A stretch of 26,984 nucleotides of DNA from a virus (lineage: Duplodnaviria > Heunggongvirae > Uroviricota > Caudoviricetes). A program made the position numbers and the translations under genes. Position 1 is the stretch's first letter. Every line of letters begins with the position of its first letter. The stretch is taken from IMG/VR virus record IMGVR_UViG_2645727948_000013. One strand, 5' to 3'. This document shows, piece by piece, positions 10,518-26,984 of this stretch. Below the pieces are notes generated by a model, which was not told the DNA's origin, made no database searches, and was given only the letters and a program-made list of their open reading frames with translations.

Positions 10518-11165
10518 TCACCATTCATAGGGTAAATTAAGCGCTTTTAAACCTTGCTGGAAAGTATTAAGAGATCCGTTTTTTTGTTGTTCCATTTTTT
10601 CGCGTGCAGCTTTCTCATACTGCTCCATCCGTTGGTTATACTCTTGCAATTCCTCCGGGGAGAGGTTTCCCATTGGGGAGTTTGTACCCGGCCCCCTGGC
10701 TCGTTCTTCAAGCGTACCCTGTACGTTTTGATGGCGCATTCCTGGGGCATTTCTTATTGAGTCAATGCCATTTCTTCCAACATCTTCTTTATTAACGGCA
10801 TTGCTCGCCACCAGCACACCCCAGCTAGGGATAGCAAAATCAGGAGCGGTTTCGCATGCCTTTACCATATAATCGAAAGTGCTTCGATTGATCTCGTTTG
10901 CGTCGGGATTTAACAGGCGAGAATATTGATATTTAGCATTTTCGTTGGTTGCGACTTTATACAGTTCTTGCTGCACCATCGCTTCAGAAAGTTTAAGGCG
11001 TTTCATATCTGACAGTAACTTCTTGCGCATGGATTCGTCTTGACTGACAGCAAAGCCGTAAACGTGCCCAAGGTATTTCGTATAATCGGTACAAATCTCC
11101 TTTACGCTTGATGCTGCATTAACAGTCCCAGCCATAAATAATAACGGTAGTAATAGTTTTCTCAT
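10518..11165 (-). CDS. Sim-like periplasmic superinfection-exclusion protein precursor, 215 aa from the RBS-supported start
   Basis: The track ORF 10518..11192 has no SD at its first ATG. The internal ATG at 11165 has a GGTGAGG SD and gives MRKLLLPLLFMAGTVNA (signal peptide). The C-terminal part shares GMRxxxVQGTLEERARGxGT with the Sit-like protein. Confidence 0.6.
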   Translation of the reverse strand: MRKLLLPLLFMAGTVNAASSVKEICTDYTKYLGHVYGFAVSQDESMRKKLLSDMKRLKLSEAMVQQELYKVATNENAKYQYSRLLNPDANEINRSTFDYMVKACETAPDFAIPSWGVLVASNAVNKEDVGRNGIDSIRNAPGMRHQNVQGTLEERARGPGTNSPMGNLSPEELQEYNQRMEQYEKAAREKMEQQKNGSLNTFQQGLKALNLPYEW

Positions 11166-11260
11166 TATAACCTCACCTGCCTTATAACTCATTTAGGGTA
11201 CATATTTTCGCCTTTAAAAAAAAGAGGTTATTAGATCCAATTGTGTATTTATTAAGCATG

Positions 11261-24170: not shown

Positions 24171-24204
24171 ATCAATACCACTGCTTGATGAGAACCGCGC
24201 AAAT

Positions 24205-24460
24205 GTTGACTATGCGCGAAAGTTAATGTGAATAGTTGACTATGCGCGATGTGACTACAGTCAAAAGTTGACTGTAGTCGATTTAACTCCACCAAAGATC
24301 GACTATGTAAGATATTGTCGGGAGAAACGTTGACTATACGCGATGAAATGACCCTAAAAGCCATCTCAATAGCGACTTGCAGAATATTGACGCCAGCAAA
24401 AATCCACCAGCGTCAACGAATGTCGCCTATAGTCAACTTCTCGCTATCGCATATAGTCAA
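24205..24460. repeat. incA-like iteron array (about 9 RepA-binding repeats, both orientations)
   Basis: Repeated GTTGACTAT(G/A)CGCGA and complement (C)GC(G/A)TATAGTCAAC units at about 24205, 24235, 24254/24267 (palindromic pair), 24300, 24329, 24409, 24424 and 24445. Confidence 0.8.
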
Positions 24461-24462
24461 TA

Positions 24463-25347
24463 TTATGGATTGCGCTTATGGATCTGGAAGCCGATTTTCC
24501 TGCCGTTTTTTATTTCTGAAAATTTAAGATATTCAATAGCTTCCAAATCTTTCATGGCTTTTCTGATAACGCTATTTTGCACGCTAACGGATGATTTGAG
24601 ATTAAGCCTTGCTCTAAGGCGCTCAATGCTGACAGGTGCCGGGTTGGCGGGTAGAGCCTCAAAGAATGTATACAGTACCTTGGCCGTCTCTTTGCGCCCG
24701 AGCTTATCCAGCATCTTCAGCTTCAGGATTCGCTTATAGTCAACATAGTAAAGTTCAGATAGCTGTTTCTGCGGCTGGATCTCGATAACATCAAGCTCGG
24801 TATTCAGGCTGCTATATGCCAACAAGTTGACGTTAATGTTATTGAGATGACCTTTTGCCGCCGGGAAGCGGAATTTGACAACTGTCTGCTGAATGCGTGT
24901 CAGAGAGTCATCAATACTTTTACGGAACGCCTTTGAAAGGCGCTTACGTGGATAGCCGCATCGATCGGCAAACTCGGAGAATGGCAGGGTGATTATGCCG
25001 TCATCATCAGGTGCGTAGTCAAACAACGCGGAGGTTATGCCCACCCACACCTTAAAATCAGTATCCATATCCAGGCGTGGGCCATGAATTTCAATTCCCT
25101 CATAGCCTTCCTGCTCAACAATTTTAAGGCTTGATAGTTCTTCGGTTGCGTTCGTTGTGTTTGTAGTAACTGACGATCCGCGACGTAGTGCCACATTGGT
25201 AGATTTTAAGGTTGGCACAAACACACCTAAGCGCAACAAAGCGATAGGTTGTATAGTGCTGTTGTTATTGGGCTTCAGGCTGTGGATTTCTCCTGTATTT
25301 CCTGCAACTTCTTCAACGCTAAGGAAGCCTTTACTTTCTTCCGGCAT
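24463..25347 (-). CDS. repA: Plasmid replication initiator RepA (iteron-binding, P1 RepA family), 294 aa
   Basis: Flanked by a 5-iteron origin upstream and a 9-iteron array downstream. GGAGAAA RBS. Segments (LRLGVFVP, GPRLDMDTDFK.W.G) resemble P1 RepA as recalled, but overall the protein looks divergent. Confidence 0.8.
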   Translation of the reverse strand: MPEESKGFLSVEEVAGNTGEIHSLKPNNNSTIQPIALLRLGVFVPTLKSTNVALRRGSSVTTNTTNATEELSSLKIVEQEGYEGIEIHGPRLDMDTDFKVWVGITSALFDYAPDDDGIITLPFSEFADRCGYPRKRLSKAFRKSIDDSLTRIQQTVVKFRFPAAKGHLNNINVNLLAYSSLNTELDVIEIQPQKQLSELYYVDYKRILKLKMLDKLGRKETAKVLYTFFEALPANPAPVSIERLRARLNLKSSVSVQNSVIRKAMKDLEAIEYLKFSEIKNGRKIGFQIHKRNP

Positions 25348-25424: not shown

Positions 25425-25640
25425 AAAATCGCGTACAGTCAACGTTTCTGTCGCGTATAGTCAACAATAAATCGCGTGCAGTCAACATAAAATCGCACAC
25501 AGTCAACATAAAATCGCGTATAGTCAATGTTGATCCCGTTTCAGGCCATGAACGGCGCGGCTTACAGCGATCCGGGATCTTCTTTGGATCTTCCTAGGTT
25601 CTCTTTGGGATCTGTTTATTGGATCTATGCTGTGGATAAG
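25425..25640. other. Plasmid origin oriR: five phased iterons, GATC cluster and DnaA box
   Basis: Iterons gcg(t/c)a(c/t)agtcaa(c/t) at 25430, 25452, 25474, 25495 and 25516 (21 to 22 bp phasing). Six GATC sites between 25532 and 25625. DnaA box TGTGGATAA at 25631..25639. Confidence 0.8.
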
Positions 25641-25681
25641 TTGAATAAACCGGCCAACATAGCCGGTTGGAAGGAAGGGTA

Positions 25682-26074
25682 TTATTCTACGCTTTCGATA
25701 AGAAGACCATGTTCATAACATTTAAGCTCATCGCCTTCGTACAGGAATTGGTATCCAATACCACCATTTTCATGGACATTAGGGAATAACTCATAACTCA
25801 CTGAAGAGCAAATCACACCAATGCAGCGATCAACGCCTTCTCGTTCTTCAGTGCTGAAAAAATCCTCTTCGGTAAGAACATGAGTACATTGCTCATCAGC
25901 ATAGGTCGGAAATACATGCTCAATGCAATCCGGGTGTTTTAAACCAAGCTGAGCGGCAAGCTCGAAAGCATGACGGTATTGTTCAGATCCTGGCTTGCCA
26001 ACAGTGATGTGCTCAATTTTGTAGATTGAAGTCGCTTTGTTGATAGTTTGCTTTACTGTTACTTTATCAGACAT
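25682..26074 (-). CDS. Hypothetical protein (in the position of P1 UpfA), 130 aa
   Basis: ATG with AAAGGGA RBS, first gene of the cluster downstream of oriR. Cys/His-rich (CIEH, CTH, C..GVIC, CYEH). Confidence 0.6.
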   Translation of the reverse strand: MSDKVTVKQTINKATSIYKIEHITVGKPGSEQYRHAFELAAQLGLKHPDCIEHVFPTYADEQCTHVLTEEDFFSTEEREGVDRCIGVICSSVSYELFPNVHENGGIGYQFLYEGDELKCYEHGLLIESVE

Positions 26075-26085
26075 AAAAATCCCTT

Positions 26086-26337
26086 TTAGTTACCGCTGAT
26101 AGCGCGGTTGTAATCATTAACGTTGCGATTCTTCCTGTTAATCCCCATCAGCATCGTTTCTGTATCGAGGATATACGCTGGCAGATCATCGAAATATTCA
26201 CTGCTAAACTCTGGCATTCTGCACATAAATGCACTTTTGGGGGCAGGGTGGTTAACCTTTGTCGGCGTCGGCGTTAAATTCGCTGATCGACTCCCGGAGC
26301 AACCGCTGAGTGTCAGCAGGAATGCGCTGGCGAACAT
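26086..26337 (-). CDS. Lipoprotein precursor (lipobox LTLSGC), 83 aa from Met28 of the track ORF 26086..26418
   Basis: MFASAFLLTLSGCSGS signal and lipobox followed by a Pro/Thr-rich segment. Start is uncertain (Met1, Met8 or Met28). Overlaps the upstream membrane-protein gene in another frame. Confidence 0.5.
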   Translation of the reverse strand: MFASAFLLTLSGCSGSRSANLTPTPTKVNHPAPKSAFMCRMPEFSSEYFDDLPAYILDTETMLMGINRKNRNVNDYNRAISGN

Positions 26338-26674
26338 TACCCGCCGCAACCAGTTGTTTCTGAACTTCAGCTTTTCGTTCCATTTGCCTGTCAGCATATT
26401 TGGCTTGTTCTGATTCATTTTTCACTTCCTGGCTGTGAAAATGTTGCTCTGCTTTGTTCATCGTCTCAATGGTCTGGTTAAGATCCATTATTGACTTATC
26501 ACGTTCCTTAACAGCCTGATCAAGACTGCCAATTTTCTCGATGGCTTGCTTTAGCTGATGACGTTCCCATGCAAACCCAGCACCAACAAGTGCGCAAATC
26601 AGAACAAGAACACCAGTAGCAGCAAGTTTCTCCTTCAAAGACAAAGCTGTTTTTAACGTAGAAAAGAATGACAT
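26252..26674 (-). CDS. Membrane-anchored coiled-coil periplasmic protein, 140 aa from the SD-supported ATG
   Basis: AGGAGGA SD 5 nt before the ATG at 26674. One N-terminal TM helix (LAATGVLVLICALVGAGFAW) followed by a charged coiled-coil-like region. Confidence 0.55.
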   Translation of the reverse strand: MSFFSTLKTALSLKEKLAATGVLVLICALVGAGFAWERHQLKQAIEKIGSLDQAVKERDKSIMDLNQTIETMNKAEQHFHSQEVKNESEQAKYADRQMERKAEVQKQLVAAGNVRQRIPADTQRLLRESISEFNADADKG

Positions 26675-26763
26675 GTCTTCCTCCTGAAGAAAAATTATCA
26701 ATGAAGTCCTTTGTTACTGTGCCGCTTTGTTTAATTCATCAAGAACAGAATCAGGAACCAAAG

Positions 26764-26838
<75 letters not shown>

Positions 26839-26839
26839 T

Positions 26840-26896
<57 letters not shown>

Positions 26897-26925
26897 CAGA
26901 ACTCGCGCCAGCCTGATTGCAGATA

Positions 26926-26984
26926 TTACTCTTTTTTCTCCGTATCTGCATCGGGTTCATCAGCAAATAGCTTGCCCTGCATCC
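26926..26984 (-). CDS. 3' end of a minus-strand ORF entering from beyond the window (stop at 26926)
   Basis: The frame is open to the window edge, ending ...QGKLFADEPDADTEKKE*. Too short to assess. Confidence 0.2.
   Translation of the reverse strand, partial: MQGKLFADEPDADTEKKE

Follow-up and report, generated by a model that had tools for sequence, protein, structure and literature searches.

ppfA and mlp, a predicted overlapped spanin pair beside the replication origin of a P1-like phage-plasmid

The stretch of DNA analysed here (the window, 26,984 nt) comes from a P1-like phage-plasmid (Punavirus). Over bases 25600-26763 it matches phage RCS47 at 100% identity and P1 and P7 at 97.6-98%, and the matching segments carry the annotations ppfA and mlp; in the remainder, the genes run in the same order as in P1, from the tail-fibre gene S to ppfA. 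A reading made from the sequence only had placed overlapping genes for a membrane-anchored protein and a lipoprotein at 26086-26674 and had named them P1 ppfA and mlp. Both ORFs are present on the minus strand and span exactly this interval, and the 97.6-100% identity to P1, P7, and RCS47 shows that the names are right. The features of the locus are the following.

26252..26674, minus strand: ppfA, predicted i-spanin of 140 aa (ORF, RBS, and phrog_89; the 'OIS' gp064 of the SpaninDB P1 entry)
26086..26418, minus strand: mlp, annotated form, predicted o-spanin of 110 aa from the upstream ATG
26086..26349, minus strand: mlp, alternative short form of 87 aa from an internal TTG start
26252..26418, minus strand: dual-coding overlap, read in frame 0 as the 3' end of ppfA and in frame +1 as the 5' end of mlp
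25682..26074, minus strand: upfA, 130 aa, phrog_1453 (unknown function), annotated as UpfA in P1
25654..25670, minus strand: terminator-like hairpin directly 3' of upfA, from a consensus scan only
26716..26742, minus strand: site corresponding to P1ppfA, a predicted sigma-70 promoter, as transferred from the NC_005856 annotation

The ppfA gene is preceded by a Shine-Dalgarno sequence, AGGAGG, located 6 nt before its ATG. As expected for an o-spanin gene of the overlapped class, mlp begins inside ppfA in another frame (+1 relative to ppfA) and outlasts the ppfA stop, extending 166 nt beyond it. Counted from the annotated ATG, the two genes share 167 nt; a start at the TTG at 26349 would reduce this to 98 nt. 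The upfA ORF begins 11 nt after the mlp stop and is the downstream gene of a ppfA-mlp-upfA unit. The description of the pair as lying next to the origin is accurate: on the oriR side, five iterons are present at 25429-25530 upstream of repA, and only upfA lies between them and mlp.

Iteron arrays in fact flank repA. The five upstream copies, with a spacing of 21-22 nt, occupy the oriR/incC position, and further copies are found downstream of repA at 24201-24463, the incA position. The repA gene of the window is the 294-aa type, called 'RepFIB replication protein A' in MH422554, and not the 286-aa RepA of P1; beyond repA, homology to P1 picks up again only at ~25631. Positions 1-540, in the region of the tail-fibre gene S, diverge from P1, P7, and RCS47, whose homology begins at ~480-537. 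The 5' end of the window matches only phages of the vB_EcoM-673R5/813R1 type, from ~171-186, as expected for the variable part of a tail fibre.

Beyond 26763, homology is lost to every P1-like phage as well as to the 659 plasmid records. The last 221 bases (26764-26984) match the end of a Mu-like element at 99-100%, and the terminal gene of this element, on the minus strand and reading toward ppfA, encodes a Mor-family activator. In E. coli chromosomes the same Mu-like end abuts differing host genes (yehR, dmsC, and others). The junction at 26763/26764 thus cuts upfB at a point 89 nt upstream of the ppfA ATG, and it represents either the insertion of a transposable phage into a P1-like plasmid or a chimeric contig.

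PpfA contains a single hydrophobic stretch, at about residues 17-36 (Kyte-Doolittle 19-mer mean of 2.35 at 17-35); a hydropathy scan of the 140 aa found no second one. The segment preceding this helix contains Lys, and the protein is predicted to have a type II topology with a single N-terminal TM domain. The periplasmic part would comprise 104 residues, of which 36% are charged and none is Cys. In an AlphaFold2 model built with 18 homologous sequences, a helix at residues 13-110 is followed by a break at 111-119 and a second helix at 120-138. The block-mean pLDDT is ~69-79 for residues 11-110 and 52-69 for the break and the last helix, with an overall mean of 69. The model thus has the helical periplasmic domain of an i-spanin, with a break before the C-terminal helix. 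Together, hydropathy and model bear out the single N-terminal TM helix and the long charged helical region that had been read from the sequence.

The LTLSGC lipobox reported for the overlapping frame is present in Mlp. Its LSGC places the lipidated Cys at position 40 of the long form and Ser at +2; there is no inner-membrane retention residue at +2, in keeping with an o-spanin. The mature part of 71 aa contains 6 Pro and 5 Thr, which cluster in LTPTPTKVNHPAP, so that a Pro/Thr-rich mature region, as first described, is correct for the first third of mature Mlp and not for the remainder. Mature Mlp also contains 1 Cys (C65 of the long form, in FMCRMPE), which is invariant in all nine sequences compared (see below). 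At least one periplasmic Cys is present in 507 of 528 spanin pairs (PMC6139136), as it is here (PpfA 0, mature Mlp 1), and Cys in the o-spanin only is the commonest cysteine pattern (PMC6139136). Any covalent dimer would accordingly be linked through the o-spanin, whose single free Cys has no counterpart in PpfA. A strict six-frame scan of the 27-kb window finds canonical lipoprotein signals in mlp and in one 44-aa ORF inside gene 23 (capsid), and 0.4 such signals are expected per window in shuffled sequence. The ppfA/mlp pair exceeds chance expectation.

Both proteins match PHROGs families labelled Rz-like spanin, PpfA matching phrog_89 (5e-25) and Mlp phrog_30284 (2e-77). By BLASTP, Mlp is 37% identical to P2 LysC over 68 aa (E 5e-8), and the alignment takes in the signal peptide, the lipobox, the Pro/Thr stretch, and the second Cys. 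The match of Mlp to lambda Rz1 is marginal (pairwise BLASTP, E 0.007), and PpfA has no significant match in pairwise BLASTP to either lambda Rz (E 0.27) or P2 LysB (E 58). A Pfam scan of both proteins yielded no match to Rz (PF03245), Rz1, or LysC (PF23793), only sub-threshold coiled-coil noise. Among NCBIfam models, the best match of PpfA is LysB (TIGR03495) at 18.2 bits against a cut-off of 92.75, and that of Mlp is P2_Rz1/LysC (NF038368) at 14-15 bits against a cut-off of 27; neither cut-off is reached. As positive controls, lambda Rz (PF03245, 2.6e-54) and P2 LysC do match their own models. Since the curated Pfam and NCBIfam models are not reached and Mlp is homologous to LysC, the pair is assigned, on sequence grounds, to a separate spanin family whose closest characterised relative is the P2 pair.

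Very probably, ppfA and mlp constitute the two-component spanin of this P1-like phage-plasmid, of the overlapped class typified by P2 lysB/lysC. This prediction draws on sequence features, on homology to known spanins, on the conservation of the dual-coding region, and on the purifying selection that acts on ppfA and mlp alike. The i-spanin/o-spanin arrangement proposed in the sequence-only reading is supported by the PHROGs matches, the homology to P2 LysC, and the combination of TM helix, lipobox, and +1 frame. It is not a new proposal for P1. SpaninDB (Kongari 2018, PMC6139136) lists P1 (NC_005856, gp064) and P7 (Upf62.7/Upf62.4) as having an overlapped ('ovl') spanin pair, and its entries give the same proteins and RBS as the window, save for two Mlp residues. 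As cited in PMC9025707, the P1 pair was first listed as spanins by Summer et al. in 2007; the i- and o-spanin labels are swapped in Bednarek 2022 (PMC9025707). Earlier still, the 2004 annotation of P1 gave mlp a possible role in the regulation of lysis, by homology (NC_005856 record). The GenBank records MH422554, MH445380, SJ46, and JL22 name the pair Rz/Rz1, and RefSeq calls mlp an 'Rz-like spanin'. The spanin pair and its position beside the origin are already known and catalogued; thus, the finding is correct but ordinary, and its importance beyond correct annotation is slight.

Spanin genes usually, although not obligatorily, lie in the lysis cassette. Here the neighbours are instead upfA, oriR, repA, and par. 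In the complete relative MH422554, lyz is located at 13.8 kb, lydA/lydB at 23.3-24.1 kb, and the Rz/Rz1 pair at 57.2-57.8 kb, which puts lyz and lydA/lydB more than 30 kb from the spanin pair. Likewise, the predicted P1 spanins ppfA/mlp have been described as an operon unlinked to the lysis genes (Bednarek 2022, PMC9025707). The MH422554 map and this work confirm that the pair sits outside a lysis cassette. Its position beside oriR is a known feature, because P1 scatters its lysis genes over several operons.

The possibility that other spanins are present, which the sequence-only reading had listed for checking, was addressed in the window and in MH422554. A lipoprotein-signal scan and inspection of the ORFs found no other pair of lipoprotein and membrane protein within the window. 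At window positions 9990-11192 on the minus strand, the position of P1 sim (superimmunity), two ORFs encode proteins of 158 and 224 aa, both with SPase I-type signal peptides. SpaninDB mentions P7 Upf50.0/50.5 in connection with this locus; the two ORFs of the window were considered as a second spanin-like pair and rejected, the signals being of the SPase I type with no lipobox. The scan of the whole MH422554 genome gave two candidates besides mlp, neither of which adjoins lysis genes. The first, a 275-aa SPFH-domain lipoprotein, has Asp at +2 and so is probably kept in the inner membrane; its length and this Asp are unlike an o-spanin, and it was set aside. The second is a 173-aa lipoprotein at the sim locus, beside a gene for a 'putative membrane protein' (41,024-42,088), and it forms the one adjacent pair that the scan leaves. 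The SpaninDB curators first took P7 Upf50.0, the sim-locus equivalent, as Rz and then chose Upf62.7 (PMC6139136). From its content in these sequences, the sim-locus slot appears to hold variable cargo, which in MH422554 is the membrane protein together with the 173-aa lipoprotein.

Upstream of ppfA, the P1 record annotates only predicted sigma-70 promoters, ahead of a (upfC-upfB-)ppfA-mlp-upfA unit next to oriR. A simple consensus scan did not recover the P1ppfA promoter in the window; its counts of sigma-70 promoters and terminators are at chance level, with one terminator site found versus 1.4 expected in shuffles. The hairpin at 25654..25670 is likely, if on weak evidence, to mark the end of the ppfA-mlp-upfA unit before oriR. 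No late (Lpa-type) promoter was found upstream of ppfA in either the window or P1. The motif used for this search was derived from a single example, LPsit, which it recovers in the window, and since it rests on one example, ppfA may still be under late control. LPsit itself is conserved exactly, at 9963-9979 on the minus strand upstream of pmgC, with the -22 box AAATGACTA and the -10 sequence TAGAAT.

Expression of spanins in a lysogen would be harmless. In the published model, spanins are inactive until the murein has been degraded (PMC9025707), and expression in the lysogen would therefore be compatible with a lytic role. If transcription is driven by sigma-70, the spanins would already be in the envelope of the lysogen before induction, and in this particular element, read-through from the Mu-like element just upstream would be possible.

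Several observations count against a spanin function: the result of CRISPRi knock-down, the failure to reach the curated models, the lack of a detected late promoter, the distance from holin and endolysin genes, and the absence of Cys from PpfA. In a CRISPRi screen covering the whole P1 genome, EOP values were 1.3 and 1.2 when ppfA was knocked down and 0.24 and 0.19 when mlp was, and both genes were scored as non-essential for plaques (PMC10695390). This is consistent with the statement that spanins are dispensable for lysis in shaken laboratory cultures (PMC9025707).

Alternatively, the pair might serve an envelope function of the plasmid prophage, such as exclusion, envelope maintenance, or replication-linked membrane attachment, and be only spanin-like and expressed from sigma-70 promoters in lysogens. 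Its place directly beside oriR, repA, and par would suit such a function, as would the tolerated knock-down in plaque assays and the upstream promoters of the P1 record, which are predicted to be of the sigma-70 type only, with none resembling LPsit. However, the search for late promoters is weak, given a motif from one example, and the homology of Mlp to P2 LysC, the PHROG spanin matches of both proteins, and the retention of the full overlapped architecture, including the +1 frame, speak against an envelope role of this kind. We consider it improbable.

Conservation of the locus bears on whether both genes are still maintained. A protein search with PpfA returned near-identical copies and a separate clade at 59-64% identity, whose members bear the name ppfA in NCBI entries from Salmonella, Cronobacter, and Klebsiella aerogenes; most of the contigs concerned measure ~14-97 kb. 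Eight distant ppfA-mlp loci were compared, giving nine sequences with the window. The genes dmt, hrdC, uhr, upfC, upfB, and ppfA, followed by repA and par, are common to all eight relatives, and the 589-nt ppfA-mlp stretch of each aligns to the window without an indel, at a nucleotide identity of 68-71% in the four of the eight for which it was measured. The +1 frame is open across an equal span in every relative (8/8). The signal and lipobox ASAFLLTL[SN][GA]C is present in seven of the nine sequences, the other two (L091 and L093) having one h-region substitution each; the lipobox L[SN][GA]C and its Cys are kept in 9/9, and mature Mlp is well conserved. The C-terminus of PpfA is invariant, as are the lipobox Cys and the second Cys of Mlp. 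Thus, the retention of the lipoprotein frame in relatives, on which the sequence-only reading had been made to depend, is seen in 8/8, each with an open +1 frame and a lipobox.

Selection was estimated by the Nei-Gojobori method. For ppfA, omega is ~0.2 against the relatives. Where mlp does not overlap ppfA, its own frame gives an omega of 0.10-0.11 and the two off-frames give 1.4-2.8. The low value in the mlp frame, together with the conserved open frame, indicates that the lipoprotein gene is real and under purifying selection. Within the overlap, omega in the mlp frame is 2-3.9 and resembles that of an off-frame, because ppfA dominates there. The overlap was tested instead by the invariance of ppfA third codon positions in five divergent sequences. 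Invariance amounts to 18% where only ppfA is encoded and to 17% along the 23 codons that form the N-terminal extension of mlp; between the TTG at 26349 and the stop codon of ppfA it reaches 72%. Conservation at the locus peaks at nt 330-420, counted from the start of ppfA, where 77-83% of the columns are invariant.

Such constraint is hard to reconcile with the idea that ppfA and mlp are decaying remnants of a spanin no longer needed by P1-like phages. Decay would agree with the non-essentiality in CRISPRi and with the detachment of the genes from the other lysis genes, and upfB, just upstream, has been cut by the foreign element in the window. Nevertheless, both genes are intact and free of indels in 9/9 lineages, down to ~70% nucleotide identity; their omega values are 0.1-0.2; the PpfA C-terminus and both Mlp cysteines, that of the lipobox and the second one, do not vary; and ~659 plasmid records carry the region. 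We regard decay as very improbable, somewhat more so than an envelope function. Hardly credible at all is the proposal that the lipoprotein frame is a chance ORF and that only a 46-aa tail, or nothing, is real: gene callers do annotate only an ORF of 46-52 aa after ppfA in many records, and over the first 23 codons of the long ORF the mlp frame is not itself constrained, but from 26349 downstream this is refuted by the conserved signal peptide and lipobox, by a codon 109 that varies among H, D, and Y yet keeps the +1 ATG, by the 72% third-position invariance of ppfA across this part, and by a homology to LysC that spans both the signal peptide and the mature part.

The spanin reading of the pair leaves the start of Mlp to be considered. 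SpaninDB remarks that the 39-residue signal of P1 Mlp is too long, that LipoP misses it, and that the start codon may differ (PMC6139136). Several findings point to the internal TTG (26349..26347), which encodes Leu24 of the annotated protein. The corresponding codon is ATG in seven of the eight distant relatives and AGG in one (L091). Residue 109 of PpfA varies among His, Asp, and Tyr (CAT, GAT, TAT), and the T-ending codon always makes the +1 ATG. The jump in ppfA third-position invariance at the TTG, from 17% to 72%, indicates that the dual-coding constraint begins there. Met1 of P2 LysC aligns to the TTG residue of Mlp. A start at the TTG gives a canonical 16-residue lipoprotein signal peptide, MRRVMFASAFLLTLSG followed by the lipobox Cys, and it is the only mlp start that passes the strict lipoprotein-signal scan. 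On the other hand, the upstream ATG, with an AGGAAG/AGGAGG motif 8-9 nt ahead, is kept in 9/9 sequences, and the internal start lacks a Shine-Dalgarno motif ahead of it. L091, with AGG at the internal position, can use the upstream ATG only. The internal TTG is probably an alternative or the true start of Mlp, and both starts may be used; the mature lipoprotein is identical from either. If the TTG is the true start, it would resolve the remark in SpaninDB about a too long signal sequence. The start-codon observation is a small addition to a known pair. The combined proposal, that Mlp is made from the internal TTG (or from both starts) and that the ppfA-mlp-upfA unit is sigma-70-driven and not Lpa-dependent, is put forward tentatively, as possible but rather unlikely.

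The overlapped mlp gene is systematically mis-annotated. The automatic calls in L083-L087 and L091-L094 contain only an ORF of 45-52 aa after ppfA, or none, whereas mlp is 87-110 aa, and in MH422554 (57202-57342) a signal-less tail is named 'outer membrane lipoprotein Rz1'. Since gene callers miss the mlp overlap and the curated models fail, hundreds of P1-like plasmids keep 'hypothetical proteins' at this position.

A mechanism for the pair can be proposed in which the interaction, sorting, timing, and membrane fusion are taken from the literature on lambda Rz/Rz1 and T4 (PMC6139136, PMC9025707). PpfA would adopt an N-in, C-out orientation, its N-terminal helix inserted in the inner membrane and a domain of ~100 residues, mostly helical, extending into the periplasm. 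Mlp would be exported, lipidated on the lipobox Cys, and cut by signal peptidase II, and with Ser at +2 it would be sorted by Lol to the outer membrane. By analogy, the periplasmic ends of PpfA and Mlp would then bind, forming a complex that crosses the periplasm through the murein mesh. Late in infection, degradation of the murein by the SAR endolysin Lyz would allow the complexes to cluster and fold back, and the inner and outer membranes would be fused or ruptured, completing lysis.

Among known systems, the pair is the same as PpfA (gp064, Upf62.7) and Mlp (gp063, Upf62.4) of P1/P7, the 'P1' family of SpaninDB. PpfA is identical to P1 PpfA at 140/140 residues, and Mlp differs from P1 Mlp at two (N7S, A33V). 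P1 also shares the RBS, the frame, the extent of the overlap, and upfA and repA-oriR as neighbours. Unlike P1, the window has the 294-aa RepFIB-like repA, and foreign DNA interrupts its upfB 89 nt ahead of ppfA.

The likeness to P2 LysB/LysC lies in an o-spanin gene that begins inside the i-spanin gene and outruns its stop. P2 LysC shares with Mlp the lipobox, a TPTP-type stretch, and the C-x-MP cysteine, and the i-spanins are of similar size (PpfA 140 aa, P2 LysB 141 aa). The P2 pair, however, comes after holin, endolysin, and lysA in one lysis cassette, whereas ppfA/mlp lies beside a plasmid origin.

With lambda Rz/Rz1, the experimentally characterised paradigm, whose mechanism is presumed to be the same for ppfA/mlp, the pair shares a type II inner-membrane protein with a helical periplasmic domain and a small Pro-containing outer-membrane lipoprotein encoded in the +1 frame. 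Rz1 is wholly embedded in Rz, whereas mlp reaches 166 nt beyond ppfA; lambda Rz has two periplasmic Cys and PpfA none; and the mature lipoprotein is 71 aa in Mlp versus ~40 aa in Rz1. In its cysteine pattern, present in the o-spanin and absent from the periplasmic part of the i-spanin, the pair resembles T4 PseT.3/PseT.2, a likeness of features and not of compared sequences; the T4 genes are separate, whereas ppfA and mlp overlap.
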